From Alteromonas sp. (GTDB lineage: Bacteria > Margulisbacteria > Marinamargulisbacteria > UBA6595), in contig CAXPTH010000003.1 in assembly GCA_964220215.1 (NCBI GenBank), forward strand, positions 5,246 to 69,245: a stretch of 64,000 nt of DNA, in the 5' to 3' direction. The position numbers were made by a program, and so were the translations under genes. The notes beneath the pieces are model-generated. The model was not told where the DNA came from, made no database searches, and saw nothing but the letters and a program-made list of their open reading frames with translations. Positions 20,220-50,832 of the stretch are shown piece after piece. Within the stretch, counting starts at the first letter, position 1, and each line of letters begins with the position of its first letter.

Positions 20220-23200
20220 TTATTTCTTATCAAGATGATCTAGACTTATTACCTTCGTACAATCTTTTTCTGCTTTTAAAGGAGGGAAAGAACTGTCTAC
20301 TGCTGCTGCTCGTGCTTCTGGAGACTCCTCTAATGCTTGTATCACTTTTTCAAAATATATCATATTGATATGGAAATCGTTGCCTTTTATATTGAACGTC
20401 GAGTTATATAAATACTTTTTATACATATTAAAACGAAAATATGGATAAATATTTAATTCTTTCTTAATTTTTTCTAGTTCGCTTTTAAAACTCTCTGGTA
20501 AATTTTGAATAGCTATTGCTTCATCCAGGTTTTCTAATACTTGTTTTTTTGTTGTTATATGATTGAAGTTATCTATATTAAGGAAAAAACTATCATTAGT
20601 TTTTATATTTTTATTTAGTATCTCGCTTGCAGATATCACTGCTTCTGCTCGTGCTTCTGCTCGTGCTTCTGCTTTTGCTTCTGCTCGTGCTTCTGCTGCT
20701 GCTTCTACTCGTTTTGCTGCTCGTGCTTCTTCTGCTTCTGCTGCTGCTAGTGCTGCTACTGGTGCTGCATCTGATTCTACTGATGCTGCATCTGATTCTA
20801 CTGCTGCTGCTGCTCGTGCTTCTGCTATTTTAATTGAACTCATTTCAACGCCTACACTGAAAAAATTAGAAATTAGATATGACAATGAGTTATTAGAAAC
20901 GCTCTTGTTAATAAAATAATCAAGTACTAACAACGGAATAACTGGAACAAATGTAGCCAGTGATTTTTTATATTTATGATCGGGGTATTTTGAACTAATT
21001 ATAGAAATTAAAATCTGTGCTAGAGCAGCTAAACCAGGGGCTATAAAACTAGGGGCTATATTAAGGTTATCAGAAATAGAAGCAGGTATTAGACTCACCT
21101 CATCAAGACAATTCAAAATAAGTCTGACTAGAGGAGGTGCTTCATAGTCAAACTGCCTCAAGATATCGATTCCTAAACGACCAAATACGCTAATAAGTAT
21201 TAGTGCAAAAGCTATGTATCCTAAAAGATCTTTTTGATATTTTATATCTTGAATATTGGTTTTTAGTCTACTGAGCAAAGCTGTTTTTTCTTGAGGACTA
21301 AGATTATCCAATTTATCTCTTAATTCTTTATCACTAATTAAATCAAGAAGAGCCGTAAAGGCCTTCTCATTTTCATAACTTAATCGACGACCAGAGGGGG
21401 TATGCGAATCGAGTGCACGCAAAAGCTTGTCTATGCTGTCCGTTTTTGGAAGCCGATAAAGCTCCATAACATTTTTGTTTTTAATTATATCTATTAATTC
21501 TTCATCTGTGAAAGACAAGGTTATTGATGTGCCTGTTGTTGTGTCAATCACGGTGACGACGGTGCTAGTGGTTCTGGTTGCTGTGTTGGTTGTGGAAACA
21601 ATGGTGGCGGTGGTGGTGCCTGTTGTTGATAGGGTTGTGGTTGTGGTGGTGGTGGATGTCTTACTTGTGGTGCTTGAGGTTGACGTGGGCGATGTGGTGG
21701 TGGATGTTGCTGTCGTTGTTGAGGTTGCTGATATGCCTGTTGTTGTGTCAGTCACGGTGGTAGTGGCGGTGGTGTTTCCGGTTGCTGTGTTGGTTGTGGT
21801 CACGGTGGTGGTGGTGGTGGTGGGTGTTGTTGATAGGGTTGTGGTTGTGGTGGTGGTGGGTGTAGTCGTGGTGGTGCTTGAGCTTGATGTGGTTGATGTG
21901 GTGGGCGTTGTTGTCGTTGTTGAGGTTGTTGATGTGCTTGTTGTTGTGTCAGTCACGGTGGTAGTGGCGGTGGTGGTTCCGGTTGCTGTGTTGGTTGTGG
22001 TCACGGTGGTGGTGGTGGTGGTGGGTGTTGTTGATAGGGTTGTGGTTGTGGTGGTGGTGGGTGTAGTCGTGGTGGTTGACGTGGGCGATGTGGTGGATGT
22101 TGTTGTCGTTGTTGAGGTTGTTGATGTGCCTGTTGTTGTGTCAGTCACGGTGGTAGTGGCGGTGGCGGTTGTGGTGCCTGTTGTTGATGTACTTGTTTCT
22201 GTTACTGTTTTTGTTGTCGATGTTGGTGTGATCGTTGTTGTGGTGGTTGATGTTGATGTTGATGTTTTTGATGTTGTTGTGATTGTTAATGATGTGGTGG
22301 TACCTGTGCTTGGTGAAGTTGTTAGCGTGACCGATGTTGTGAATGCACACTGAATAGCGGCATCGAAATTTTCATTCGTATCCAAGCAATTTGCAATATG
22401 TTTTTCGCTCAAGTCAAGCTGGCCACCTTGGCCATCATCTAAAATAGCATTTACAGCCTGTTCAATGTTATTTGAAATTTCTCCAAGTTTAGCTAAAATA
22501 ATTTGTTTTATATTATTGTATTGTGCATTGTTTAAATCGTTTGCGTTATAAATTCCCCATGCTAACCATTGTGCAGCAGCGTCTGCAGTACCAGATACTT
22601 TTGCCTGATCAACAGCATATTGCCAATTTGATGAACTTTTTTGCCCGGATCCTCTGAGATTACCTATTTTACTCGTAGTTTTAGGTCTGGTGCTTGATCC
22701 ATCTGCACGTGAACCTGTTGCTGGCACTATTCCCATAAAACCTGATGGCTGTGCGTCTGCAGTAGTTGCTGCCATAAGTAGAGTAGCGATTCGTAAAATA
22801 CTAATAGCAGCTGAACTACCAGCTCTCCTGTTTCTACTTCTCTTAGCATCTTTCTGCTCTTCCCAGGCAAATTTAACGCTATGTATAGTATCTTCAAACA
22901 CTGGTTCTTGATACAGATTGTCTATCATGTTGGCTGTGTTGATGTTTTCTAATAACTCCGTTATCGATTCTTTATTACAGGTATAGTGAGTCACCGTGTC
23001 GTTATCAAATTCAAATAACACTGGAGGGTTATTGTTGAATTCTTTTAGTTCAGCGATGCTTTTTTCAATATCTGTCTGTAATTCTTTACTTTTTTTTGCA
23101 GTGCTCTTTAAATGCTCCAAACACGTGATTGTCTTTCTGTAATTATCTAAGTTTGTTAGAAATCGTTTTGCTTGACTAATTGATTTCTGTACTTCTAATG

Positions 23201-24299
23201 AACTTTCAATACAATTAATCGGATTGGCAAATAATTGGTTTGGATTGTTTTTATGGTTATTTAAGTTTTCGTTGAATATCGTTGTGTCAATAGTTTTAGC
23301 TTCTTTTTTTAATTCGGCGATTGTTTCAAATTGACCGATTGAATCATTTAGCCAACTTACTGCTCGTTCCAACTCAGGAGTAACAGACGCTGAATTGAGC
23401 AAGTGTTCTAATAAAGTATTGTTTGTTATGTTTGCTAACTGGTTTTTTAGGTCCTCATTAATAACGCCATCTTTTTTTAATGCCTTAAGTCGTTGAGGAA
23501 AATTACTTAGTGTGGTGTAGTGTTGAGTCAATAACTTAGCATTCAAAGCAATGGTGTCTACAGTGGCCTTAGTTAGTGGTTTTTCAGAAGAAAGAGCCTC
23601 ATGAATAGTGGTTAAAATTTTGTTTTGAATCGCTGAGTGTTTTGTCTGAAGGGTTTCATCCAATACTTGGGTGAGTTCTGTAAGCCTATTGAGTAAGTTG
23701 TTGGGATCACTTGATTTCAGATTTTCTATTTTTTTACAAATAACCTTAATTGTTTCAGAATCGCTATCCTTATGCTTGTCTAGAACAAATTGTATATAGT
23801 GTTTGGATACTTCTTGCTTGATTTTGGTTGCTTGTTGGCTAATCTGACAAATGTTTTCTTTTTTAGTTAGAACGGCATCCAATTCATTAAGCGTATTACT
23901 TAGTTCTGTGCTTTTTTTATTTATTTCTTTGTTTAAATAGCACGCTGTGCTTAAGTTAAGCAGCAATTGTGATTTTGTTAAAATTTTCCCTGGTAGCTGG
24001 TTGTCATTTTGATTGTTTCTGGATTGGTTTATTTGCTCATTTATAATATTTTTTAGTTTAATTAATTGTTGTGGACAGTCTTTCCCGAGTTTAACCATGA
24101 TTTCGTAAGATTTTATATTAAACTGATAAGCCTCTTGAATTTTTTGATTGGTAGGAGTGACTGGATTAGGCCCCCATGCTGGTATAGGGGAGGTCTGACT
24201 TTTTGTAAATGGTTTTGTTTTCACGCCATTTTTCGTTTGGCTTGATGCTAATCTAGCTGATGCTGGTCTAGCTGATAATTTTTGTATTTTTGTTGTCAT
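20220..24299 (-). CDS. giant coiled-coil / mucin-like Thr-Pro-rich repeat protein with C-terminal hydrophobic segments and an (EARA)n tract
   Basis: 1359-aa ORF. The N-terminal ~480 aa are Asn/Lys/Leu-rich and coiled-coil-like. A central ~330-aa run is almost pure Thr/Ser/Pro in ~64-67-aa repeats. The C-terminus has three hydrophobic helices and AEARAEAKAEARAEARAEA. The DNA is visibly AT-rich relative to its neighbours. Confidence 0.7.
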   Translation of the reverse strand: MTTKIQKLSARPASARLASSQTKNGVKTKPFTKSQTSPIPAWGPNPVTPTNQKIQEAYQFNIKSYEIMVKLGKDCPQQLIKLKNIINEQINQSRNNQNDNQLPGKILTKSQLLLNLSTACYLNKEINKKSTELSNTLNELDAVLTKKENICQISQQATKIKQEVSKHYIQFVLDKHKDSDSETIKVICKKIENLKSSDPNNLLNRLTELTQVLDETLQTKHSAIQNKILTTIHEALSSEKPLTKATVDTIALNAKLLTQHYTTLSNFPQRLKALKKDGVINEDLKNQLANITNNTLLEHLLNSASVTPELERAVSWLNDSIGQFETIAELKKEAKTIDTTIFNENLNNHKNNPNQLFANPINCIESSLEVQKSISQAKRFLTNLDNYRKTITCLEHLKSTAKKSKELQTDIEKSIAELKEFNNNPPVLFEFDNDTVTHYTCNKESITELLENINTANMIDNLYQEPVFEDTIHSVKFAWEEQKDAKRSRNRRAGSSAAISILRIATLLMAATTADAQPSGFMGIVPATGSRADGSSTRPKTTSKIGNLRGSGQKSSSNWQYAVDQAKVSGTADAAAQWLAWGIYNANDLNNAQYNNIKQIILAKLGEISNNIEQAVNAILDDGQGGQLDLSEKHIANCLDTNENFDAAIQCAFTTSVTLTTSPSTGTTTSLTITTTSKTSTSTSTTTTTITPTSTTKTVTETSTSTTGTTTATATTTVTDTTTGTSTTSTTTTTSTTSPTSTTTTTPTTTTTTTLSTTPTTTTTTVTTTNTATGTTTATTTVTDTTTSTSTTSTTTTTPTTSTTSSSSTTTTTPTTTTTTTLSTTPTTTTTTVTTTNTATGNTTATTTVTDTTTGISATSTTTATSTTTSPTSTSSTTSKTSTTTTTTTLSTTGTTTATIVSTTNTATRTTSTVVTVIDTTTGTSITLSFTDEELIDIIKNKNVMELYRLPKTDSIDKLLRALDSHTPSGRRLSYENEKAFTALLDLISDKELRDKLDNLSPQEKTALLSRLKTNIQDIKYQKDLLGYIAFALILISVFGRLGIDILRQFDYEAPPLVRLILNCLDEVSLIPASISDNLNIAPSFIAPGLAALAQILISIISSKYPDHKYKKSLATFVPVIPLLVLDYFINKSVSNNSLSYLISNFFSVGVEMSSIKIAEARAAAAVESDAASVESDAAPVAALAAAEAEEARAAKRVEAAAEARAEAKAEARAEARAEAVISASEILNKNIKTNDSFFLNIDNFNHITTKKQVLENLDEAIAIQNLPESFKSELEKIKKELNIYPYFRFNMYKKYLYNSTFNIKGNDFHINMIYFEKVIQALEESPEARAAAVDSSFPPLKAEKDCTKVISLDHLDKK
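20640..20830. repeat. 12-bp simple sequence repeat (gcttctgctcgt)n encoding (EARA)n, plus a duplicated ESDAASV unit
   Basis: Read directly: gcttctgctcgtgcttctgctcgtgcttctgcttttgcttctgctcgt... Confidence 0.8.
21480..22350. repeat. intragenic tandem repeat, about four copies of a 192-201-bp unit encoding the Thr-rich module
   Basis: The unit tgttgttgtgtcagtcacggtggtagtggcggtgg... recurs at about 21738, 21939 and 22131, with a diverged copy near 21534. Confidence 0.8.
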
Positions 24300-24329
24300 A
24301 TATCTCCCCTTTCTTGATTCTTAATTTCT

Positions 24330-25265
24330 TTAAAATGTTATGCCTGCAAACACGGTGCCAACGAGGGTTCGTTCTTTGGTTAGTCGTTTCCGACCATATT
24401 CATCTACGGATAGCTCCCCTGGATTTTCTTGAAATCTGGCTTGCGTGCCAATTAGTATCGAATTTATGCTGAGCATAGCCCCCAATTCGCCATATACTGA
24501 TACTTGATTATTGGTGTAATAGAATTGCCGGGGTTGAACAATAAGATCTTCCCTCTTGATATTATCGATATCATTCACAATAGATTCAATTAGATTTTGT
24601 CTTGGTAACGTGTAGTTTTTCCCATAAATGCTGGCTGTGCTAATCACGAGCCCTCCGCCAATGTACAGATCAAATTGGGTATTGTATGCGTGTTTGGCGT
24701 ACAGTGATTTGCGCACTCCCAACCGGCCGGCGTGGATGTATTTGCTGCTACCACTGTTGGATAAGTTAAATATTTCGGTTAGGTTACTTGTGTCCCGGAA
24801 AGCATACATATTCGCATCAATAGCTATATATATAACTGGCATCTTTATGGTAACCCCTGGACGATATTCATGAACAACGGTATGCCCGTATCCGGCGACA
24901 ACCCATAGTTGAGGGCTTAGCCATTGCCGGCTAATTTCAATGCCTTGTTCATACCCAAACCGTTTGCTTGGTTTTAGGCTTACTGTGTAATTTGTATTTT
25001 CATTTCCATTAATATAGTATTCCTCAACCGATTTAGCTGGCGGTTGACTGCTTTGGTATGGCCCGGGTCCCAGGGGTAGACCACCATATAGTCGTACTTG
25101 CCACATGCCCCAGTTGGGTTTTCGAGTCTGTTTATTGTGTGTCGTGTTTACTTCATCCGTAGCGTTTTCGTGAATGTTGTAATGCAGCTCGGCAAATCCA
25201 TTGGTTGTGTATAAACCGATGAATACAGCGATGATAAATTTAGTGTGCAAGTTTAGTTTTTTCAT
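24330..25265 (-). CDS. outer-membrane beta-barrel protein (signal peptide, C-terminal Phe)
   Basis: MKKLNLHTKFIIAVFIGLYTTNGFA signal peptide, alternating amphipathic strands, terminal ...FAGITF. Confidence 0.55.
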   Translation of the reverse strand: MKKLNLHTKFIIAVFIGLYTTNGFAELHYNIHENATDEVNTTHNKQTRKPNWGMWQVRLYGGLPLGPGPYQSSQPPAKSVEEYYINGNENTNYTVSLKPSKRFGYEQGIEISRQWLSPQLWVVAGYGHTVVHEYRPGVTIKMPVIYIAIDANMYAFRDTSNLTEIFNLSNSGSSKYIHAGRLGVRKSLYAKHAYNTQFDLYIGGGLVISTASIYGKNYTLPRQNLIESIVNDIDNIKREDLIVQPRQFYYTNNQVSVYGELGAMLSINSILIGTQARFQENPGELSVDEYGRKRLTKERTLVGTVFAGITF

Positions 25266-34993: not shown

Positions 34994-36338
34994 TCAGCAC
35001 CCACAGCTATTGATTATGGGACGCCCCAATGTGGGAAAGTCCACGATTATTAATCGATTATTGGGAAAGCGACAAGCCATTACATCGGATGAATCAGGCG
35101 TCACTCGGGATATTGCGATGTACCCGTTAACGTGGGATTCCCATGCGCTGCTATTGGTGGACAGTGGGGGGGTGTTTTTAAGCAATTCCAGCGATATTTA
35201 TTTACAATCGGCTATTGAATCCAGGGTCAAGCATGCCATTGAGCAAGCCAGCGCAATTTTATTTGTCGTGGACTACCAAGCGGGTATTCAAACGCATGAT
35301 CAACTGATTGCACGGTATTTGCACCAGGCCAACCGACCGGTGTATGTGTTGGTGAATAAAGTGGACGATACCCGGGTGCATCATGAGTATACGGAGTTTT
35401 ATCGCTTGGGATTTGATGCGGTGTATCCAGTATCGGGGGCGCACGGCACTGGCTTTTCGGATTTGTTGGATGCCGTGTGCACGCAGGTGTATGCTGAAGC
35501 AGATAAGGTAGAGGCGGTAGAATCAGACGCTAGTCACAGCATTGCGTTTATTGGGCGCCCGAATGTGGGCAAGTCGTCGTTGCTCAATACAATTTTAAAT
35601 GATGAGCGTGTGCTGGTGGATAATAAAGCTGGAACCACCCGAGATTCCATTCGGGTGCCGTTTCAATTTCAGGATCAGTCGTTTATGTTGGTGGATACGG
35701 CGGGTATTCGCCGAAAATCAAAAATTACCGATGATGTTGAGTATTATTCGGTCGTTCGGTCCTCCTCTGCCATGAGTGATGTGGATGTGGTTGTGCTAGT
35801 TTTGGAGGCGGATCCGTTTTTAACCGATCACGATAAGCGGTTGCTTAGTATGGCCATGGATTCGGCCAAGGCCATTATTGTCTTTGTGAATAAATGGGAT
35901 TTGTTGGAACGCAGCGATGCCAATCGGCGTTCGTTAATTAAAAAAGCGACCTGGGCGATGCCCGCCTTGCAGCATTATCCGTTTATTTTTGGGTCGGCCC
36001 ATTTGGGGCATCAGCATCACAGTATTTTTGCAAAGATTCCGGATTTGGTGGCTCGGAGTCAGCAACGCATTCAAACATCGCGGTTAAATCAGTTTATTCG
36101 ATCGGTGGTGGATCACAGCCAACCGCCCTCAAAAACGGGGCAGCCGTTGCGTATTTTTTATGCCACACAAGCGGAAAGCAGCCCGCCAACGTTTATCTTT
36201 TTTGTGAATAACAAACAGTTGCTATCGCCACAATACCAACGATTTTTAGAGAAACGCTTTCGAGAGGCGTTTGATTTTGAGGGGGTCCCCATTCGGTTAT
36301 TTTTTAAGAATCGAGCTAAAGTTAATATTCGAGAGTAA
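34986..36338 (+). CDS. der: ribosome-biogenesis GTPase Der (EngA)
   Basis: Two tandem GTPase domains (GRPNVGKST x2) plus KH-like C-terminus. Confidence 0.9.
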   Translation: MSNQHPQLLIMGRPNVGKSTIINRLLGKRQAITSDESGVTRDIAMYPLTWDSHALLLVDSGGVFLSNSSDIYLQSAIESRVKHAIEQASAILFVVDYQAGIQTHDQLIARYLHQANRPVYVLVNKVDDTRVHHEYTEFYRLGFDAVYPVSGAHGTGFSDLLDAVCTQVYAEADKVEAVESDASHSIAFIGRPNVGKSSLLNTILNDERVLVDNKAGTTRDSIRVPFQFQDQSFMLVDTAGIRRKSKITDDVEYYSVVRSSSAMSDVDVVVLVLEADPFLTDHDKRLLSMAMDSAKAIIVFVNKWDLLERSDANRRSLIKKATWAMPALQHYPFIFGSAHLGHQHHSIFAKIPDLVARSQQRIQTSRLNQFIRSVVDHSQPPSKTGQPLRIFYATQAESSPPTFIFFVNNKQLLSPQYQRFLEKRFREAFDFEGVPIRLFFKNRAKVNIRE

Positions 36339-37734
36339 GCGATTCTTTTTCTCTTCCCCATAATTGTTGATGAAGCGTCCCATTTTTTTGAGCGCCCCTG
36401 TATAAAATTTTAAATTTATTTTGAATCGTAGCCAGTATTTTTTTTTGATAAACAGGGTGGTGTTCGATGAGCAAATGGCGAATTAAACTAGCCAGTCGAT
36501 AGATATCCATGGCCAGGTAGCGGTGCGATAATTGATCGGCATGGCCACCGTATTTCACAACCGTGGGTATCGGGGATAGCCCAATTGGTAATTCTCTTGA
36601 TAGAGACAACCATAAATCATAATCTTCACAAGCGGGCAACTGGGTTTGGAACCCCCCATGAGCCAGGAGCCAGTCCCGCCGAATTAATACCGCAGAGGGG
36701 GACACCATACACCGTTGGCAAGCGGCATCAAATATCCAGCCGGCAACCTTAATATGATGCCGTTGGGGCATGACTGGCTTACCATGACGAATCCATTGCT
36801 CAGGACTTTGCAACCAATAGTAAAAGGGGGCTTCCGCATGCGTTTTGCACAGCCGTTCAATGTGATCTGGCAACCAATAATCATCGTTATCTAAAAAGGC
36901 CACCCACGGTGTTTGGGCGTGGTGAATTCCACAATTTCGAGCATAGGAAACCCCTCGAGCCGATTCCGGTTCTCGAATGACCGAACATGCCGATACGGGG
37001 TACGTTTGGTCATAGACTGATTGAATGGCCCGGCGTGTTTCACGCGGTCGTTGAAAAGCTGGAATAATTGCCGTAATATCATCGGGGGTTACAGGCGCCC
37101 AGGTCAATAGTGCTTGAATATCGGCATGCAAACTCGGCAACTGGTTTTTATAGTCCCGAATCGATGGTTGATGGCCAAAATCACTCACACGCTTAAGCAC
37201 ATGAAAGGAGGTTGGGGTATTGTGAAAAACAGCCGCCTGAGCACTCGCTTCCATATCAACACACGGTGCCAAGGGCCACGCTGGCACAGCATGCACCGGC
37301 GTGGGGCTGCTATACAAGGTATCCGTACTGTATGGGGCCAGTGGCCACGGAATCGGCAAACGGTCTGGCATTGTATACCGGGTAGTTTGCGTCTGCACAT
37401 GCGTTATATGCAACCAAGTGCCCCAAGGATGGTGACGCTGTAACGCCGCACAGGTTCCAATATTAACCACATACCGGGGATTGAGCTCGGTGTGAATATA
37501 CTCAGCGGCCTGGTGCGACTGAGCCAGTCCAAGACCGGTAACAACAATGGCCACACGATCAAATAAGTAATAAATGGATGTGCCCTTAGGTGGACGCCAT
37601 TGGGGGGGCAGTTCAGCGGCCAAGGCCACAGTAATGACTAATTCGAGCTTATAGGTTGCTGGCAAGCCGACCGCGATTGCGTTGTTCCCGAAGCGCATCC
37701 AATTCGGGGTTTTTGGGGTCATCCGGACGTCCAA
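36322..37734 (-). CDS. fusion protein: PNP_UDP (nucleoside phosphorylase/MTA-nucleosidase)-like N-domain plus family 2 glycosyltransferase
   Basis: N-terminus ...VVTGLGLAQSHQAAEYIHTELNPRYVVNIGTCAAL (PNP_UDP_1-like). C-half IIPAFQRPRETRRAIQSVYDQTYP...ARNCGIHHAQTPWVAFLDNDDYW...CEDYDLW (GT2 DxD and ED motifs). The 5' end overlaps the upstream oxygenase gene. Confidence 0.6.
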   Translation of the reverse strand: MDVRMTPKTPNWMRFGNNAIAVGLPATYKLELVITVALAAELPPQWRPPKGTSIYYLFDRVAIVVTGLGLAQSHQAAEYIHTELNPRYVVNIGTCAALQRHHPWGTWLHITHVQTQTTRYTMPDRLPIPWPLAPYSTDTLYSSPTPVHAVPAWPLAPCVDMEASAQAAVFHNTPTSFHVLKRVSDFGHQPSIRDYKNQLPSLHADIQALLTWAPVTPDDITAIIPAFQRPRETRRAIQSVYDQTYPVSACSVIREPESARGVSYARNCGIHHAQTPWVAFLDNDDYWLPDHIERLCKTHAEAPFYYWLQSPEQWIRHGKPVMPQRHHIKVAGWIFDAACQRCMVSPSAVLIRRDWLLAHGGFQTQLPACEDYDLWLSLSRELPIGLSPIPTVVKYGGHADQLSHRYLAMDIYRLASLIRHLLIEHHPVYQKKILATIQNKFKILYRGAQKNGTLHQQLWGREKESLTLEY

Positions 37735-39401: not shown

Positions 39402-40523
39402 ATGAATAGTCAACAGTTTCAATATCATCGACGACATGGTTGGTCCAGTCCAATCCAATTGGATGCCGATGTGGATTTGGTGCTTGTGTTTGGGGATAAA
39501 CGGTTGGTTAAAGCGGATTCGCATAACCAAATAATTAATCGAAACTTTCCCAATGCGGTGATTGCCGCTGTATCCACAGCGGGTGAAATTCAGGGCAATC
39601 AAATTTACGATAACACGTTGTCTATAACGGCGATTACCTTTGAAAAGACATCTGTGAGTGGCATTCAGGTTGATTTAAGTAACTTTAAGGATAGTTTTGA
39701 TGCTGGGCAGGAGTTGGGTCAATCATTTAACCAAAAAGACTTGTCTCATGTTCTAGTATTTGCTGATGGCATGATGACCAATGGGTCCGATCTTGTTGAG
39801 GGTTTGGAATCCGTTTTATTGGATCACATTACGATTTCTGGTGGATTGGCTGGGGATGGCGTCAGTTTTAATGAAAGCATTGTGGGCTTAAATGGCAATA
39901 ACCAAACCAATCAGGCTATTGTTATCGGGTTTTACGGCACGGCCATTCATATTGAGCATGCCTTGCGATCGGGATGGACACCCCTAGGCCCCAAAAAGAA
40001 AATTACGTTATCAACTAAAAATACAGTGTATGAATTTGATCATAAACCCGCAATTGAGTTTTACAAATCGTATTTAAAAGAACAGGCGGATTCACTGCCT
40101 TCCTCCGGCTTATTGTTTCCGATTAAGCTATTCAATGATGATGATACACAGGTTATTCGAACCGTTGTCGGGCTTGATACACACGATCAGTCCTTACGCT
40201 TTGCAGGCAATATGCCCGAAGGCGCTTTCACTCAAATTATGCACGCAACAGCTGATGATTTGTTAAATGGAGTCACGCAAGCTGCCCAAACACTCGAGCC
40301 CCATCATCCGGATCTGGTTATTATGGTTAGTTGTGTGGCGCGAAAATTAGTGTTAGATAACCAAATCCACGAGGAAGTGCAGGATGTCTACAACTGTCTT
40401 TCGCATTCAAACTATTCAATGGCTGGATTTTATTCGTACGGACAAATTAATCCTGGACACACAAGTAAAAAAAGTCGTTTGCATAATCAAACCATGACAC
40501 TCATTGCGATTCGGGAGTCCTAA
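39402..40523 (+). CDS. FIST domain protein (FIST N + FIST C)
   Basis: 373 aa, SD aaggag. Paralogous along its full length to the ORF at 42283-43446 (MNSQQFQYHRRHGW... versus MNVEQFQYHDKTGW...). Confidence 0.7.
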   Translation: MNSQQFQYHRRHGWSSPIQLDADVDLVLVFGDKRLVKADSHNQIINRNFPNAVIAAVSTAGEIQGNQIYDNTLSITAITFEKTSVSGIQVDLSNFKDSFDAGQELGQSFNQKDLSHVLVFADGMMTNGSDLVEGLESVLLDHITISGGLAGDGVSFNESIVGLNGNNQTNQAIVIGFYGTAIHIEHALRSGWTPLGPKKKITLSTKNTVYEFDHKPAIEFYKSYLKEQADSLPSSGLLFPIKLFNDDDTQVIRTVVGLDTHDQSLRFAGNMPEGAFTQIMHATADDLLNGVTQAAQTLEPHHPDLVIMVSCVARKLVLDNQIHEEVQDVYNCLSHSNYSMAGFYSYGQINPGHTSKKSRLHNQTMTLIAIRES

Positions 40524-40581
40524 ATAGCGGACAACCTTACGCCGATTGCGTGGGTGTTACTCAAACGCATTGACTTGATTG

Positions 40582-41421
40582 TTAAACCACATGCAAGCTT
40601 AGCCCTTCATAGGCCATTGTAATTGAAAATGAATACGATTTTTCTTTAATGTAAAAGTTTATGCGTTCTCGCATTTCATCAATATCCTGATCGGTTCGGC
40701 AAGGATCGTGATGGGTCAGCACCAATTGTTTGATATTAGCCATGGCTGCCAAATCACACACTGATCGATAATCACTGTGTCCCCAACCGGACTTTTCTTT
40801 AATCTCTTCCGGTAAATATTGGCAATCGTGAATCAGCAAGTCACACTGTTTAAAAACGTTGGCAAAGTCTGAGACGGATCGCGCGGATGAGTCAGTAGAC
40901 AATAGCTCATTATCGGTACAAATGGCGATTGATTTTTGATCCAGGGTCAGTTTATAAACGGTATAACCACCCGGATGATTGGCCGGCACCGTATCCATAC
41001 GCAATGTACTGGGCAATGTTCTAGACTGTGAGTTAAATTGGTGAAATGTACAATTGCTGGGCAGGTGATCAAATTCAACCGGAAACTGCTGCCCATTCAT
41101 TTGCGATATAATATTGTTTTCCCATCCTTTCGGATAATCGGCAATGAAATGAATGTCTTGATTGGGAATGTACAAGGGCTTAAAAAAGGGAAGTCCCTGA
41201 ATATGATCCCAATGAAAATGGGTGAAGTATAAATAGAGTGGGTCGGTTTTATTAATAATTTGATCCCCTAAATCAACGATACCCGTTCCAGCATCAATAA
41301 TCATCGAATGCCCATTTTCCAGTATAATTTGCAAGCACGTTGTTTTGCCCCCATACCGGCAATAGGCGTCCCCAGAAATGGGAAGAGACCCCCGAACACC
41401 AAAAAATTTAATGCGTATCAT
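40582..41421 (-). CDS. metallo-beta-lactamase-fold hydrolase with class II cyclic-nucleotide-phosphodiesterase-like motif
   Basis: THFHWDHIQGLPFF is close to the class II PDE signature HxHLDHxxG. It is the last gene of the FIST-cyclase operon. Confidence 0.65.
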   Translation of the reverse strand: MIRIKFFGVRGSLPISGDAYCRYGGKTTCLQIILENGHSMIIDAGTGIVDLGDQIINKTDPLYLYFTHFHWDHIQGLPFFKPLYIPNQDIHFIADYPKGWENNIISQMNGQQFPVEFDHLPSNCTFHQFNSQSRTLPSTLRMDTVPANHPGGYTVYKLTLDQKSIAICTDNELLSTDSSARSVSDFANVFKQCDLLIHDCQYLPEEIKEKSGWGHSDYRSVCDLAAMANIKQLVLTHHDPCRTDQDIDEMRERINFYIKEKSYSFSITMAYEGLSLHVV

Positions 41422-42286
41422 GATGATTGCTCCTGTCTTGATCCAATAAGCACAAGTAACTCACTAGATTCGGCATTTCTTTCAAATTTAAGTGTTTATT
41501 TTTTTTAAATCGTGTTTGATACGGAGGGGATAATTTATGATACGTATGTTCTGTAATATGAATGGCATTGCCCACACCGTGTGATTCCATACGGCTAGCA
41601 ATGTTAACGGTATTGCCCCAAACATCATAATTAAACACCGTTTTTCCAATGAGACCCGCAATAATCGGACCAGAATGAATCCCGACTTTTAATTTTGATT
41701 GAATTGAATACGACAGTATCTTTTTTGAAAATCCCTGAATAATTGACTGTGCCATATCAATGAGTTGATCCAATTGCCCCTGACGGTGGTTATGGATCCC
41801 AGATACGACCATATAGCAATCCCCAATGGTTTTGATTTTCTGAACGTTGTACTGCAGGGCAATATCGTCAAACAGGCAAAAGACATCATTTAAGAAGCTC
41901 ACAACCGTTTGGGTACCCATTTGATCCGTTAATGCCGTAAACCCAACAATGTCAGCAAACAGAACATGGGCCTCTGGAATCGCATCCGCAATGGATGCTT
42001 CGCCCTGTAATACACGGTTGCTAATATCTTGTGGCAATATATTTAATAATATAGTTTCAATGCTTTTTTTATTGGATTCGATCAGTTCGTTTTTTTCTAA
42101 CAATTCACTGGAGACTAGAGATAGGGAATGCTCGGCACGAGCGCGGTGTGCCATTAGGTCATTAAACGCGATGTCACAGGCCTCAACAAACGCTTGAATG
42201 GGTGGGGGGAGTTGATTAAACGACTCCGACATCGGCAAATATTTTTTAAGGAGCCGCAATAACAGTCGATTGTTTACAGGGATCAT
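41408..42286 (-). CDS. class III adenylate/guanylate cyclase with N-terminal coiled-coil helix
   Basis: VLFADIVGFTALTD...KIKTIGDCYMVVSG...GIHSGPIIAGLIGKTVFNYDVWGNTVNIASRMES cyclase homology domain. Confidence 0.8.
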   Translation of the reverse strand: MIPVNNRLLLRLLKKYLPMSESFNQLPPPIQAFVEACDIAFNDLMAHRARAEHSLSLVSSELLEKNELIESNKKSIETILLNILPQDISNRVLQGEASIADAIPEAHVLFADIVGFTALTDQMGTQTVVSFLNDVFCLFDDIALQYNVQKIKTIGDCYMVVSGIHNHRQGQLDQLIDMAQSIIQGFSKKILSYSIQSKLKVGIHSGPIIAGLIGKTVFNYDVWGNTVNIASRMESHGVGNAIHITEHTYHKLSPPYQTRFKKNKHLNLKEMPNLVSYLCLLDQDRSNHHDTH

Positions 42287-43446
42287 TCAATTTCTCGCAT
42301 CGCTGTAATGGTCATGGTTTGATTATGCAGCAAGCTAACTGAATTGGCTTGATGATCAAATGGGCATAGTTCGCCATATGAATAAAATCCAGCTATTGAA
42401 TTTTTAGATTTGCTAAAAATTGCTGCAATTTCTTCAATTTCTTCATCAGCCTGCTGACCCATAATGAGCTTTCGGCCAACACAGCTGACCAAGATAATAA
42501 ACTCCGGATCGGGATTCATAGCCATGCTTGATTCAGCGGCTTCAATCGCGCCGCCAATGAGATCATCGGTTGTGGCATGCATCATTTGAGCCACAGTGCC
42601 TTCTGGAACATCCCCGGCAAAAATTAATGCGTTTTCCGTTTCATCAATGCCCACAACAGTACGAACCAATGATTTTTGTTTAGAATTTTGGTTATAAATT
42701 GATAATGGAAATAGTAGGCCGGAAGCCGGTAAATTTAATTCTTGATCTTGGGTATACAATTTATAGAGATCCAATGCGGCTTGTTTATCCAGCTCATACA
42801 GTATATTGTTATCCGCCCGTGTAATAGATCGCTTGGGGCCAAAGGGCCGCCATCCCCCACGGGACCCATATCCAATTTTTAATGATTGTCCATAAAACCC
42901 AATCATACAGGTTTGATGCGGTTTGTAATGACCATTGAGGCCCAATACAGATTCATTAAAGTCAGCACCGTCTCCAGACAGTCCGCCCGTAACAGCAATT
43001 GTTTTTGGAATCACGGAGTAAATACCGGCTAATAGTTCAGTGGCATTGGTGACGACCCCATCGGAAATAACAAATAGATGGCATAGATCATCGTGATTGA
43101 GTGCATTGGCCATGGCTTGACCCGCCATAAAATTGCTTGAAAAATCATTTAAATCCAACTGAATGCTTTTAATAGTTGTTTTTTTAAAGGTAACCGCGCT
43201 GACCGATAGGCTATCATCGTAGGTTTGGTTGCCATGTATTTCACCCGATGTTGATGAGACTAAAATAATGGCATTTGGAAAGGTGTCGTCTAATACCGAC
43301 ATAATTGCGTGTGTTTCTACTAATTTTTTAGCACCAAACACCAACACCCAGTCCACATTGGGCTGTATGTATAGTGGACGAACCCAGCCGGTTTTATCAT
43401 GGTATTGAAATTGCTCCACATTCATATTAAGCTCCTTATTATTCAC
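42283..43446 (-). CDS. FIST domain protein (paralog of 39402-40523)
   Basis: 387 aa. By paralog alignment the likely start is the internal Met at about 43425 (MNVEQFQY...). 4-nt overlap with the cyclase gene. Confidence 0.7.
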   Translation of the reverse strand: MNNKELNMNVEQFQYHDKTGWVRPLYIQPNVDWVLVFGAKKLVETHAIMSVLDDTFPNAIILVSSTSGEIHGNQTYDDSLSVSAVTFKKTTIKSIQLDLNDFSSNFMAGQAMANALNHDDLCHLFVISDGVVTNATELLAGIYSVIPKTIAVTGGLSGDGADFNESVLGLNGHYKPHQTCMIGFYGQSLKIGYGSRGGWRPFGPKRSITRADNNILYELDKQAALDLYKLYTQDQELNLPASGLLFPLSIYNQNSKQKSLVRTVVGIDETENALIFAGDVPEGTVAQMMHATTDDLIGGAIEAAESSMAMNPDPEFIILVSCVGRKLIMGQQADEEIEEIAAIFSKSKNSIAGFYSYGELCPFDHQANSVSLLHNQTMTITAMREIE

Positions 43447-47517: not shown

Positions 47518-50500
47518 TCACCGAATTGCATGCGTTTTCCAGTTTGTAATAACCAACCATAGGTACCAGAAAAGGCTTAAAGCGAAAATTAACAGTGCCG
47601 ATATTAAATATAAACCCAATGCCCCATCAAACGGTTGGTACAGCCCCTGTTTAAGCGTATGAATTGTGGCGAAAAATCCAGTAATCAGTGGAATAAATGG
47701 CAAATGTTTACGAATCACTAATTTTGTAATAACCAGCAAACTAATGCCCATTAACACAGCCATGACGACTCCATGCGCCAATGCGCTGGGTAACTGAGTC
47801 ATGCCTAAAATAAATCCAGTAATAAAAATAACAAGCGGGCGAATACTCCAATGCCAATGAAATAAGCGAGACAATCGATCATAGACGTACAGTGTCATAA
47901 AAATAGTTAAGCTAATAATAATGTAATGCCGAATGGGGGACAGTATTGCTGATACGGTAGTGAAATACGTATTAACAGCCGTATAATCTGAAAAAACCAA
48001 TGTGTTGGGTTGAATATAGTATGCAACTGAGAGTAAGCCAAGCGCAATAAACGTGACCCCGCCACACAATAAAACCCGGTGAGACAAACACATTTCCAAT
48101 CGGCGGAACGATCCGTGATGAATAAACCCCGCAATAACCGATAAAACCATTGATTCAATCACAATAAAAGCGCCCGCTTTAACATTTAAAAGAACCAATT
48201 GATACGTCCACGATTTACCATCAATAACACGAAATAACAACTCCGGGTAGTGGTTAACATGAAGAACGGTGTTCAGGCACAACAGGCCAAAGAAAAAAAC
48301 ATAAAAAACGCGATAACTAAAATAATGATGCTGCCAACTATAAAGACTAAAAATAAATACCGCCAAAATAGCACTGTAGTACACTAGCTTTAAAATACCG
48401 AGAATTTGACTGCGAATCGATTGATTGGCTTTGGTTTTATGCACCCATTCTTTTGGCATTTTCAAAAGCTGAAACGTATCCACACTATAATTGTTGGCTA
48501 CATTTAAAATTAGCGATGCGCGATTAAACGGTTGGGGAACCTCGGTGTGATCCAGCATATACTGATAATATTGCGTATTATCTTTAATCTTGGTTGCCCG
48601 TTTGGCAACACCAAACGGGTGCTTCTGATCATAATCAAACAATTGAATGGTTTGTTTAATTAACGCTGAATGATTCGTTGTTGAAAACGACTCCGGAATG
48701 ACCATGCGCTTAAACCGCACCAGCTCACCGTGACTCCCTAGTGTAATGGCATATAAATCTTGAACGCGATGCTGCGTATTGACAATGCGAATGCGCCAAT
48801 ACGGTGCTACGGTATAGTGACCAAACTGTTGAGAATCTAGCTGGTTTTCCCATAAAAACGTATCCAGCATAGTGGGTTCTTGGCGAATGCTCATCAGCAA
48901 TTTCCACTCCGGCTGCCAGGTAATTCCCTGAGACTTTAAGAGGGATTCAACCCGACTGGGAACCAATTCTTTGTCTAAAGTAAGCATTGGCGAATTGGCA
49001 GTAAAGGGCGTTAGCATGACCCAAGCAGCAATCCCAATAAGGCTGCACACGCCAATGGCGTATAATTTCCCCTTTTTAAAGTGGCTAAACGCTTCAATTG
49101 GGCGCAATTGCCGATAAATTGTTTTGGTGCTGGGCTCCCAGGCTTTGTTAAGCACAGCCTCCGTAATTGGAGAAAACCCCCCCTGCTTGAGCCGCATCGC
49201 AATGGCATACATAAACGGAGCCGCAGCACCCAAAATAATAATGGCTTGATCAATAATCGTGTGCTGCTCAATAACGGTAAATAATGGAAGCGCATAAACA
49301 CTAATACTATAAATAAACTGCGCAATGATAATGGGCAATAACCCAAAGCGTAAATACACACACCCCAAGAGCAACGCAGGAACAATCAGCTTAGTCAGAT
49401 ACAACGAAGCTGGAATGCTGGCCCCTGAGTACATACCATGAAACGCCGCATAAATAAACGCCTGTGCCAGTAGTGCAAACCCAATCCAAGCTGATTTAAA
49501 CCCAAATCGTTTACCAAGCAACGCCGCTCCAGCCAATGGAATCGCGCGAAACAAACATTCTTTCCAGATACTATTGCTCAGACTATAAACAACCGGGCTA
49601 ACCCCCGGAAAATAGCTGCTCAGGATGGATTGATGCGCAAATAAATTGGATGGTGTCCATCCCGAGACCAATGGCGCTAACACATGATTGAATAAAATCA
49701 TATAGCCGATCAAAAAAATTCCAAGCAAATACCCGCCAAGAATACGTCCAAATACAGACGGGCTACTAACCACGCGGGACGACAGCAATTGCCACAATTG
49801 AATTCGATTTTCAAACGCTTTACGTGTTAAACTTTCGGCAACCATTAATGCCAGTGAAAATAAGATCAACCAAAACACCAGAGACCCAACAAACTGTGTC
49901 CCCAATTCAATTAAAAATGTTGTCTGTGCAATTAATGGATTGTAGGTATGCAATCGTATGGGCATCAAATTTAAGTTTGATAGTCCAACCAATGTAGCCA
50001 AAAGACTCCCGGCAATAATGGGTTTTTTCCAAATGAGATAGCCCCGCTTGATTAAAAAAGCAAGTCCAAAAAAACAGCCAATAATACCGTAAAATATTCC
50101 AAAACCGACACGGCCAATTAATGTAATTAATTGATGCGTTTTATTGGCGCGTTGGTAGTTCGCTAAAAAAGAATCTGGAATAACCAATCGATATTGGAAG
50201 CCGCTCACTGTATTATTTCTTAGACTCACCACAAGCTCTATTGTTTTAGTGTAGCCATTGGACGGCTGATCGTATTGATAGCGGCACATATAGCGAGACT
50301 TGGTTTGATCGCCACACCCGAGCCAACGCATCTGGCTTAAATTGACCCCCCACGTTTGTGTCAATTGCTTGGATACCGCATCAACACCCAGGGGCATTGC
50401 TTTTGTTAAGGGCTGGTCAGAACGACTGCGATCATCAAATCCATAGAGTTCCCCATTGGCTCTTAAATAAATTCGAACATCCTGTTGGGTTTGCGCGCTT

Positions 50501-50832
50501 AAGTGCCGAACTTCCCAGAAAAAGGGCTCATACGGTGTACTGACAAGGCTATCGCCATGCACGCTGGCCTTGAAGTCCACATACTGTGTTTCTGCTTTAT
50601 TGGAACGAAATACGGCCGTTTGTTGATACGTATTGGGCCCAATTCCCAGTGATTTAGCCAATTCATGCGCCTGATCCAAGGCCATAGATCGGTTCATACT
50701 AATCGGCGGCGTGATTTTACTCACCATGGGCTGAACCTTCATATATGTAAACGCAAGAGAAATCATTGCTAAAAGAATCAAGGCGTCCCAAAATAGCTTG
50801 TTTCTAAATAATGTGCCGGTTTTTATGCCCAT
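47518..50832 (-). CDS. giant polytopic membrane protein with CPBP (CAAX-protease/Abi)-like core and two large extracytoplasmic domains
   Basis: 1104 aa, more than 15 hydrophobic helices. KECLFRAIPL and AAFHGMY resemble CPBP motifs 1 and 2 (EExxxR, FxxxH). Confidence 0.5.
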   Translation of the reverse strand: MGIKTGTLFRNKLFWDALILLAMISLAFTYMKVQPMVSKITPPISMNRSMALDQAHELAKSLGIGPNTYQQTAVFRSNKAETQYVDFKASVHGDSLVSTPYEPFFWEVRHLSAQTQQDVRIYLRANGELYGFDDRSRSDQPLTKAMPLGVDAVSKQLTQTWGVNLSQMRWLGCGDQTKSRYMCRYQYDQPSNGYTKTIELVVSLRNNTVSGFQYRLVIPDSFLANYQRANKTHQLITLIGRVGFGIFYGIIGCFFGLAFLIKRGYLIWKKPIIAGSLLATLVGLSNLNLMPIRLHTYNPLIAQTTFLIELGTQFVGSLVFWLILFSLALMVAESLTRKAFENRIQLWQLLSSRVVSSPSVFGRILGGYLLGIFLIGYMILFNHVLAPLVSGWTPSNLFAHQSILSSYFPGVSPVVYSLSNSIWKECLFRAIPLAGAALLGKRFGFKSAWIGFALLAQAFIYAAFHGMYSGASIPASLYLTKLIVPALLLGCVYLRFGLLPIIIAQFIYSISVYALPLFTVIEQHTIIDQAIIILGAAAPFMYAIAMRLKQGGFSPITEAVLNKAWEPSTKTIYRQLRPIEAFSHFKKGKLYAIGVCSLIGIAAWVMLTPFTANSPMLTLDKELVPSRVESLLKSQGITWQPEWKLLMSIRQEPTMLDTFLWENQLDSQQFGHYTVAPYWRIRIVNTQHRVQDLYAITLGSHGELVRFKRMVIPESFSTTNHSALIKQTIQLFDYDQKHPFGVAKRATKIKDNTQYYQYMLDHTEVPQPFNRASLILNVANNYSVDTFQLLKMPKEWVHKTKANQSIRSQILGILKLVYYSAILAVFIFSLYSWQHHYFSYRVFYVFFFGLLCLNTVLHVNHYPELLFRVIDGKSWTYQLVLLNVKAGAFIVIESMVLSVIAGFIHHGSFRRLEMCLSHRVLLCGGVTFIALGLLSVAYYIQPNTLVFSDYTAVNTYFTTVSAILSPIRHYIIISLTIFMTLYVYDRLSRLFHWHWSIRPLVIFITGFILGMTQLPSALAHGVVMAVLMGISLLVITKLVIRKHLPFIPLITGFFATIHTLKQGLYQPFDGALGLYLISALLIFALSLFWYLWLVITNWKTHAIR

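Follow-up and report, generated by a model that had tools for sequence, protein, structure and literature searches.

A FIST sensor, adenylate cyclase and metallo-beta-lactamase operon in an uncultured marine bacterium as a candidate new-output variant of the NosP-type sensor-partner architecture

The locus described here comes from an uncultured marine bacterium of the Marinamargulisbacteria and was analysed within a 64-kb stretch of its DNA (the window). Three genes on the reverse strand follow one another closely: FIST2, the operon's first gene (43446 to 42283; 387 aa as the longest ORF, which opens at a GTG), a soluble cyclase predicted to be of the class IIIa adenylate type (42286 to 41408; 292 aa) and a metallo-beta-lactamase (MBL)-fold protein, a candidate cAMP phosphodiesterase (41421 to 40582; 279 aa, Pfam Lactamase_B_2). 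A fourth gene, FIST1 (39402 to 40523; 373 aa, from the ORF list and Pfam), is encoded convergently on the forward strand, and a spacer of 58 nt (40524 to 40581 in the ORF list) separates its stop from that of the MBL gene. The FIST2 stop and the cyclase start share 4 nt (ATGA), the cyclase stop and the MBL start lie in an overlap of 14 nt, and a Shine-Dalgarno-like AGGAG can be read in the 3′ end of the cyclase gene, 8 nt ahead of the MBL ATG (41430 to 41434, reverse strand). The coordinates, strands and overlaps of the initial annotation were thus confirmed for all four ORFs, and the three reverse-strand genes form what the sequence indicates is a translationally coupled operon. The true start of FIST2 is probably the ATG at codon 8 (43425), giving a protein of 380 aa; this start is favoured because a Shine-Dalgarno-like AAGGAG lies 6 nt upstream of it (43432 to 43437, reverse strand, by sequence reading) and because the relatives are 379-380 aa long. 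Compared with a relative of 80% identity, all four genes gave dN/dS values of 0.055-0.09 (0.055 for FIST1), which are approximate because dS is saturated; housekeeping controls were similar, and all four genes appear to be under purifying selection.

The order FIST2, cyclase, MBL recurs in six sequence-distinct Marinamargulisbacteria loci at 46-80% identity, with spacings of -14 to +11 nt. The conserved triad occupies two genomic contexts, one between DoxX/amine oxidase and SpoU genes and the other between CoaE-ankyrin and HflX genes. Because both the order and the tight spacing recur in six loci down to 46% identity, the arrangement is not a product of chance. Whether FIST and cyclase genes keep company in relatives was one of the points on which the initial annotation had been prepared to give up its proposal, and they do so in all six loci and in both contexts. 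In three relatives (L007, L014 and L178/9) the MBL gene is then followed by a gene for a membrane-anchored protein, in which a cNMP-binding domain precedes C-terminal hydrophobic segments; no cNMP-binding gene was found within the 64-kb window.

The HxHxDH motif is a general feature of MBL superfamily proteins. The MBL protein of the window carries THFHWDHIQG at residues 67-76, which the initial annotation had likened to the signature of class II cNMP phosphodiesterases. The ten residues are indeed there, but the canonical class is not: the PS00607 pattern, H-x-H-L-D-H-[LIVM]-x-[GS]-[LIVMA]-[LIVM](2)-x-S-[AP], is unmatched and there is no match to Pfam PF02112. Instead, THFHWDH (residues 67-73) fits [T/S]HxHxDH, the motif described for the PF12706 group as 'atypical class II' (PMC9293780), and the protein matches Lactamase_B_2 (PF12706) at 8e-10 (39.1 bits against a cut-off of 27). 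By both motif and domain it is therefore assigned, as a prediction, to the atypical class II phosphodiesterase group of YhfI, Rv1339 and CpdA. Its metal ligands form a full binuclear set and are invariant across 44 homologs. The AF2 model (pLDDT 93.5) matches the folds of BA1088/YhfI, RNase Z/BN, PDE1 and PhnP; YhfI and BA1088 rank near the top in both structural and profile comparisons, the YhfI profile aligning over the full length at E=3e-10, and YhfI prefers cAMP and cGMP (PMC9117128).

By fold, the protein is inseparable from RNase Z/BN, which fold and profile searches rank as high as the phosphodiesterase-type MBL proteins. It might be argued that the sensor-cyclase pair is real while the MBL protein is no cAMP phosphodiesterase, being an RNase Z/BN- or PhnP-like enzyme that acts on RNA ends, 2′,3′-cyclic phosphates or some other phosphodiester and shares no more than a transcript with the pair. 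At about 40% identity, the MBL family also has members without a nearby cyclase. We regard this alternative as unlikely. The RNase Z and PhnP models score about 41-50 bits against cut-offs of 252-293: the protein falls below the NCBIfam equivalog cut-offs for RNase Z/RNase BN and reaches 40.9 bits against 272 on the PhnP model (TIGR03307). No phn genes were found near the MBL gene. Even relatives at 46% identity retain the translational coupling of the MBL gene to the cyclase, the motif is of the atypical class II kind, and in three lineages it is a cNMP-binding gene that comes after the MBL gene. In addition, MBL genes adjoin unrelated class III cyclases in 12 of 80 metagenome loci, and they follow three other, unrelated cyclase architectures: the same MBL family is found after REC-cyclases (L116 and L140) and before a CHASE2-cyclase (L012), and a second MBL subfamily, counted within the 12, follows dCache-HAMP cyclases.

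The cyclase itself is a clear member of class III. Its catalytic domain (residues 104-272; 41471 to 41977, reverse strand) matches Guanylate_cyc (PF00211) at 2.5e-48 and 164.5 bits, far above the cut-off of 21.9. The full set of six catalytic residues is present, namely the metal-binding D112/D156, the adenine-specifying K152/D221 and the transition-state residues N228/R232, and they are conserved in all six cassette cyclases; the enzyme is accordingly predicted to be a catalytically competent homodimer of adenylate, not guanylate, type. Its best PDB matches are tmAC9, tmAC5 and tmAC8 (about 2e-52) together with Rv1625c-type structures, and the catalytic domain resembles soluble guanylate cyclase (sGC) and tmAC roughly as closely as it does bacterial enzymes. 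In the AF2 model (mean pLDDT 89), a continuous helix of 54 residues (residues 28-81; 42044 to 42205, reverse strand; block pLDDT 79-96) runs unbroken into the catalytic domain, linking the N-terminal part of the protein to an LLNILP transducer motif and the catalytic domain. The C-terminal end of the HNOBA model matches this helix region weakly (E 0.03).

The N-terminus of the cyclase had been taken for a coiled coil and nothing else. It is in fact a specific, conserved module common to the partners of this FIST subfamily, spanning residues 6-67 (42086 to 42271, reverse strand) and made up of a short helix, a loop with a proline and the initial stretch of the long helix; Pfam offers no model for it. 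An HMM trained on 54 FIST partners that are not cyclases finds the module in the cyclase at E=1.3e-10 (38.4 bits), the sole match among the ORFs of the window, in the relatives of the cyclase at 3e-12 to 5e-9, and at 4e-26 in an independent FIST-adjacent cyclase of Bradyrhizobium, which belongs to another class III subtype. Across many phyla, 71 of the 79 proteins whose genes immediately follow a stand-alone FIST gene begin with the module, in a sample that comprised the 80 most similar loci and was not random. Histidine kinases make up the majority of these partners (HATPase_c 45, GGDEF 11, EAL 7, SpoIIE 4, Guanylate_cyc 1). The coupling of a stand-alone FIST protein to an effector, initially seen as an oddity, is thus the norm for this subfamily, in line with the NosP paradigm (PMC12570481) and with the layout in 71 of 79 FIST loci. 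As to the neighbourhood survey that had been proposed to look for recurring cyclase partners, a stand-alone FIST gene upstream of an effector proved common, and a cyclase in the partner's place unusual (one of 71).

A sceptical reading of the same data denies FIST2 any direct control over the cyclase: the two genes would be co-transcribed and nothing more, and the module would be a common dimerisation or coiled-coil element of signalling enzymes. The module is indeed helical and runs on into a helix of coiled-coil character, and some FIST genes lack a partner, as with genes on Legionella plasmids and with the window's FIST1. However, the module is sequence-specific beyond a plain heptad pattern (LLxRQxxR...FxxxVxxAYxxxDxDRxxxERSLELSSxEL), and in the 79 FIST loci it was found nowhere but in the gene right after FIST. 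Only eight of 120 cyclase homologs have it, all of them clade members, and each of those whose upstream DNA was examined is preceded by a FIST gene; among 80 other cyclase loci there is a single instance, on a kinase. We consider the sceptical reading distinctly improbable.

Both FIST proteins belong to the FIST domain sensor family (PF08495 and PF10442), with FIST_N followed by FIST_C above the gathering scores of 23.2 and 28.5 bits. FIST2 matches FIST at 7e-39 (134.1 bits) and FIST_C at 2e-31 (109.3 bits), and FIST1 matches them at 4e-39 (134.9 bits) and 1.5e-28 (100 bits). The two are homologous to the NosP model over its full length, although neither qualifies as NosP itself (NCBIfam equivalog NF041558, cut-off 450 bits): FIST2 scores 46.1 bits and FIST1 71.6 bits, and a further ten proteins of the 379-aa subfamily range from 44 to 82 bits. 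They are, on these profile scores, a subfamily distinct from NosP. With scores of 46 and 72 bits against 450, ligand and mode of action cannot be transferred with confidence. The initial view of FIST as an amino-acid sensor has been overtaken by the work on haem and NO in NosP, and by analogy with this distant relative haem, in combination with NO, O2 or redox state, comes first among the candidate ligands, though it is offered as a lead only.

FIST1 shares 46% identity with FIST2 and 75% with the FIST protein that precedes a pseudo-cyclase in the 80% relative (L001), where a degenerate cyclase of 303 aa occupies the place of the window's 58-nt spacer. No partner gene was found downstream of FIST1 in the window, where it is convergent to the operon. 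FIST1 is apparently the leftover sensor of a second FIST-pseudo-cyclase pair, a pair still present in the 80% relative. The proposal of two ligand specificities converging on one messenger is not borne out in that form, as the FIST1 ortholog of this relative precedes a catalytically dead cyclase of its own. The dead cyclase is missing from the window. FIST1 may either act on the window cyclase as well or have a partner encoded outside the window.

The cyclase and the cNMP-binding protein with C-terminal hydrophobic segments that sister cassettes hold recall Pycsar defence, but a Pycsar-like anti-phage system, in which infection would trigger the cyclase, the cNMP-binding/TM protein of sister lineages would disrupt the membrane and an Apyc1-like MBL enzyme would serve as a built-in brake, is very improbable: in its favour are the resemblance of the fourth-gene proteins of L007, L014 and L178 to PycTM effectors, precomputed Pfam tables that label the MBL relatives Anti-Pycsar_Apyc1, weak PADLOC matches to PycC and the suggestion of Hobbs et al. 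that host Apyc1-like enzymes possibly regulate Pycsar, while against it the cyclase scores 32 bits on PycC and 164 bits on Pfam Guanylate_cyc, has the canonical adenine-specifying K152/D221 and is nearest to tmAC/Rv1625c-type enzymes, the effector-like proteins match only the generic cNMP-binding part of the PycTIR models, the effector gene is absent from the window, and the cassette, with a candidate phosphodiesterase and a FIST sensor of a kind absent from Pycsar systems, has housekeeping genes for neighbours, shows signs of vertical inheritance and evolves under strong purifying selection. The PADLOC models for the PycC cyclase and the PycTM/PycTIR effectors gave only generic, domain-level scores, and the locus was not classed as Pycsar. 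As for PF23023 (Apyc1), the tables list it for relatives of 80-97% identity, and the window MBL protein had no score in the profile search.

Among known systems, the sensor-cyclase pair is most readily set beside NosP-NahK/NosK of Pseudomonas, Vibrio, Legionella and Burkholderia, in which a stand-alone FIST-FIST_C haem/NO sensor is encoded beside the enzyme that it regulates. FIST proteins of the NosP type bind the kinase encoded next to them and regulate it (PMC12570481). In both cases the gene for a FIST_N and FIST_C protein of about 380 aa immediately precedes, in tight coupling, that of an effector in which no sensor domain is recognised, and the 4-nt overlap of FIST2 and the cyclase gives the operon layout of a NosP-type sensor and partner. 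Unlike those systems, the output in the window is a class III adenylate cyclase, and hence cAMP, and not a histidine kinase or c-di-GMP enzyme; the operon includes a dedicated candidate MBL phosphodiesterase; and the FIST subfamily scores 46-82 bits on the NosP model against the 450-bit cut-off. The MBL protein resembles the atypical class II phosphodiesterases of B. subtilis (YhfI), M. tuberculosis (Rv1339) and C. glutamicum (CpdA), and perhaps phage Apyc1, in its fold, its [T/S]HxHxDH motif and its binuclear metal ligands. The cyclase shares the six canonical catalytic residues with the class IIIa, transducer-bearing Rv1625c and mammalian tmAC C1/C2 domains, but it lacks their membrane anchor, and the FIST-partner module takes the place of a 6TM, HAMP or REC input. 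By analogy, the class IIIa catalytic domain after a long signalling helix with an LLNILP-type transducer motif may also be compared with sGC. In contrast to sGC, a heterodimeric guanylate cyclase, the window enzyme is predicted to be homodimeric and adenylate-specific (K/D), and its sensor is a separate polypeptide with a FIST fold and not an H-NOX.

Taken together, our data make it probable that the three-gene operon makes and removes cAMP under the control of a stand-alone FIST sensor. The core of the initial proposal, that a sensor, a cyclase and a degrading enzyme constitute one cyclic-nucleotide module, is supported by the preservation of the triad as a unit in two contexts, and further by the cNMP-binding protein added in three relatives and by the MBL genes placed directly after unrelated class III cyclases. 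In the model that we favour, FIST2, in its ligand-bound or ligand-free form, would dock on the N-terminal module of the dimeric cyclase, a contact suggested by the adjacency of the two genes. The signal would travel via helix 28-81 and the LLNILP transducer element to alter the geometry of the catalytic dimer, and so cAMP output, following the logic by which NosP controls its histidine kinase. Hydrolysis of cAMP by the co-translated MBL enzyme would keep the signal transient and local. In sister lineages, the membrane-anchored cNMP-binding protein encoded next in the operon may read that signal; in the genome of the window, the cAMP reader would have to be encoded elsewhere.

A bolder extension, in which these FIST proteins sense gas or redox state through haem in the manner of NosP and the module is a universal, transplantable docking and transducer element for kinases, c-di-GMP enzymes, PP2C phosphatases and cyclases, is speculative, and we consider it improbable. 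Were the haem reading true, the operon would represent an NO- (or O2-) regulated bacterial adenylate cyclase composed of two proteins and, though built of unrelated parts, functionally analogous to soluble guanylate cyclase. Overall, we view the operon as a new-output variant of the NosP-type sensor-partner architecture, in which a cAMP-making enzyme would be a new output for the widespread FIST sensor family.

The locus holds a compact minus-strand operon comprising FIST2 (42283-43446), a class III cyclase (41408-42286) and a metallo-beta-lactamase-fold (MBL) protein (40582-41421), with a second FIST gene, FIST1 (39402-40523), convergent on the plus strand. ORF calling recovered all four genes at the coordinates of the initial annotation, and Pfam searches confirmed their domains: FIST_N and FIST_C in both paralogs, Guanylate_cyc (2.5e-48) in the cyclase and Lactamase_B_2 (8e-10) in the MBL protein. 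The overlaps that chain the operon were read directly in the sequence, 4 nt (ATGA) between the FIST2 stop and the cyclase start and 14 nt between the cyclase 3′ end and the MBL start, and AGGAG lies 8 nt 5′ of the MBL ATG. The FIST2 ORF was drawn from a GTG; as a correction, we place its putative start at the codon-8 ATG (43425), which is preceded 6 nt upstream by AAGGAG, relatives being 379-380 aa long. Scanning the locus for promoters and terminators gave results at chance level, and an Rfam search of the window gave no match. The 90%-identity cluster mates of the locus proteins are named Candidatus Marinamargulisbacteria by NCBI, an uncultured marine lineage.

Several other ORFs in the window deserve mention. 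Two minus-strand ORFs of 1359 and 311 aa (20220-25265), with no Pfam match, lie in a stretch of low GC (0.38-0.41) and strong AT skew (-0.2 to -0.29). A 1104-aa multi-pass membrane ORF (47518-50832), also with no Pfam match, keeps the same length in L001, the 80% identical relative. A 470-aa ORF with a TTG start (36322-37734) joins a PNP_UDP_1-like N-terminal region to a family 2 glycosyltransferase domain.

The predicted co-occurrence of FIST and cyclase in relatives was borne out, as the FIST-cyclase-MBL triad is kept in six loci at 46-80% identity. The 80% relative (marine metagenomes, MAG GCA_002433595.1) shares synteny with the window, and the same gene order recurs at 46-57% identity (L004-6, L014/15, L007, L178/9) in another context, CoaE-ankyrin...HflX-TPR-Wzy. 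Intergenic spacing is -14 to +11 nt across all six cassette loci. Against the 80% relative, dN/dS for all four genes was 0.055-0.09, in line with the controls Der (0.063) and SpoU (0.15); the values are approximate because dS is saturated. The cassettes of L007 (2290-2898), L014 (2772-3401) and L178/9 (L178 10857-11474) include a fourth gene. Its product of ~205 aa has a cNMP-binding domain at the N-terminus (E 9e-15 and 2e-17 in the two proteins scored) and hydrophobic segments, probably two transmembrane helices, at the C-terminus; tblastn of the 64-kb window found no cNMP-binding gene. Directly 5′ of the sister-lineage cassette is a gene for an ankyrin-repeat protein of ~415 aa (L004 2057-3307, L178 6304-7545), a notable neighbour given that the lineage includes host-associated members.

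At the sequence level, the cyclase is catalytically competent. Its metal-binding (D112/D156), substrate-specifying (K152/D221) and remaining catalytic (N228/R232) residues are all kept in 6/6 cassette cyclases, and we therefore predict a homodimeric enzyme with adenylate cyclase activity; we take K152/D221 to be the adenine pair under established class III rules. The closest solved structures are mammalian tmAC9/5/8 and Rv1625c-type enzymes. Full-length relatives form eight 90% clusters at an identity of at least 46%, and further out the catalytic domain alone aligns.

The MBL protein belongs to a family of >5000 members of ~280 aa, with invariant residues D43, H68xH70xD72H73, H149, D170, H215 and H238. 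Its suggested likeness to class II phosphodiesterases (PDEs) holds in modified form: the PROSITE class II pattern is unmatched and PF02112 is absent, but the motif THFHWDH agrees with [T/S]HxHxDH, the defining motif of a group in PF12706 known as atypical class II PDEs (Rv1339/YhfI/CpdA; PMC9293780). Foldseek searches with the AF2 model (pLDDT 93.5) returned BA1088 and YhfI as best matches (about 1e-14) and RNase Z at 6e-14, and did not separate PDE from RNase Z. The modelled structure thus assigns the protein to the MBL superfamily's phosphodiesterase branch without settling its substrate, for which genomic context favours cAMP. YhfI prefers cAMP and cGMP (PMC9117128). An RNase Z/PhnP-like enzyme is an alternative that we consider unlikely. 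A match to PF23023, the model for the phage anti-Pycsar enzyme Apyc1, was not reproduced in a Pfam search with the window protein.

Pairing of cyclase and MBL genes extends beyond the cassette. A metagenome scan with the cyclase clade returned cyclases at 35-46% identity, without the clade itself, and an MBL gene lay immediately 3′ of the cyclase in 12/80 of these loci, both MBL subfamilies counted. The window MBL family itself was found 3′ of REC-cyclases in L116 and L140 (MBL-family HMM, E 4e-90 and 5e-94) and 5′ of a CHASE2-cyclase in L012. Genes of a second subfamily (~254-273 aa) overlap the stop of dCache-HAMP class III cyclases in metagenome loci L100, L106, L110, L111, L117, L123 and others. 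For this subfamily the NCBIfam 'cyclic nucleotide-degrading phosphodiesterase' model was best or near-best, though its ~43 bits fall far short of the 400-bit cut-off, and the pairing looks like a recurrent, apparently uncharacterized cyclase-PDE operon type.

The FIST2 subfamily is very large, found in many phyla as stand-alone proteins of ~379 aa at roughly 45% identity. From GTDB species genomes we surveyed the 80 closest FIST loci, a sample that does not include the window's own genome, taking the gene directly 3′ of FIST as its partner and assigning outputs by Pfam typing. Kinases were the commonest of the 71 partners (HATPase_c 45, HisKA 40), followed by GGDEF (11), EAL (7), SpoIIE (4), HD-GYP (1) and a single Guanylate_cyc. 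FIST-kinase pairs were not accompanied by MBL genes (1/80 loci).

Whatever their output domain, the partners share a start of ~65 residues, LLxRQxxR...P...FxxxVxxAYxxxDxDRxxxERSLELSSxELxxxN, a segment covered by no Pfam model. An HMM of this module trained on 54 non-cyclase partners had one match among the six-frame ORFs of the window, cyclase residues 6-67 (E=1.3e-10), and matched every cassette cyclase (3e-12 to 5e-9). The initial annotation had described the cyclase N-terminus as a coiled coil with no sensor; the segment is a specific FIST-partner module and not a generic coiled coil. The AF2 model (pLDDT 89) has a helix at 6-16, a loop and an unbroken helix 28-81 running through LLNILP into the catalytic domain. 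The end of the helix weakly resembles the HNOBA C-terminus (E 0.03).

The module is adjacent exclusively to FIST: 71 of the 79 FIST loci, which come from many phyla, carry it, and 71/71 matches lay directly after FIST and 0 elsewhere. Among 120 cyclase homologs it was confined to the eight clade members, and in 80 other cyclase loci it occurred once, in a kinase. A MASE7-cyclase comes after that kinase (L105 454-2881), and on the upstream side the contig edge is too near to show any FIST. The single cyclase of the genome sample, from the cultured bacterium Bradyrhizobium lablabi SZCCT0422 (NZ_JAFCJK010000003.1; L019 4998-7403), matched the module at 4e-26. This independent FIST-cyclase pair has no MBL gene within 5 kb, and its cyclase is of another class III subtype, in which Thr replaces D221. 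Co-transcription of overlapping genes could occur without direct regulation of the cyclase by FIST2; the specificity of the module argues otherwise, and makes such an arrangement distinctly improbable.

NosP proteins are haem-binding NO sensors that regulate the kinase encoded next to them by binding it directly (PMC12570481, PMC8846402, PMC11237717). The NosP equivalog model matched FIST1 and FIST2 over their full length at 72 and 46 bits, far below its cut-off of 450, and ten typical members of the FIST2 subfamily likewise scored far below it; the architecture is thus the same, but the NosP ligand is not transferable on these scores. The literature searched, with limited access to key papers, gave no residue-level haem ligand for NosP. 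Long FIST homologs (571-605 aa), considered as FIST-cyclase fusions, proved to be FIST duplications. A plasmid search found only a FIST-kinase pair in Azospirillum and an orphan FIST on conjugative Legionella plasmids (e.g. NZ_CP011106.1; L176 5001-6167), 40% identical, beside an efflux operon and, like FIST1, with no same-strand partner 3′.

FIST1 is 46% identical to FIST2 and 75% identical to the FIST directly 5′ of a second, 303-aa cyclase in the 80% relative (L001 8923-9834; also L002 and L003). Of its six catalytic positions (K, P, R, D, D, H), only the substrate Asp is retained, and judged by these residues this cyclase is a catalytically dead pseudo-cyclase; it matches the module weakly (3.6e-4) and could heterodimerize with the active enzyme. 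Its position in the window is a 58-nt spacer (40524-40581), which we read as loss in the window's lineage, and the approximate dN/dS of 0.055 for FIST1 indicates that purifying selection still acts.

A Pycsar-like defence system is a very remote prospect, membership being rejected because PADLOC matches are domain-level only (PycC 32 bits vs Pfam 164), and the adenylate-type specificity residues, housekeeping context and lack of an effector gene in the window also speak against it.

We rate the locus as a NosP-type sensor-partner pair that shares the architecture of NosP systems but differs in its predicted output, cAMP with a built-in phosphodiesterase instead of a kinase. In the model that we favour, FIST2 would dock onto the cyclase dimer through this module, and helix 28-81, together with the transducer element, would carry the signal on to the catalytic dimer. 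cAMP would be hydrolysed by the co-translated MBL protein; in sister lineages, a cNMP-binding membrane protein may read the signal. Known NosP/FIST partners are kinases and c-di-GMP enzymes, with phosphorelays and c-di-GMP as outputs, and the literature searched held no paper pairing a FIST domain with an adenylate cyclase, which is limited evidence of absence.

Overall, a conserved FIST-adenylate cyclase-phosphodiesterase operon would link the FIST/NosP sensor family to cAMP, and recurrent cyclase-MBL operons point to a large, largely uncharacterized group of bacterial cAMP phosphodiesterases. The unannotated module is the more general by-product of our analysis. NosP-type signal transmission is poorly understood, according to reviews, and the module provides a predicted docking site for FIST sensors on their effectors, offering a testable handle on that process.
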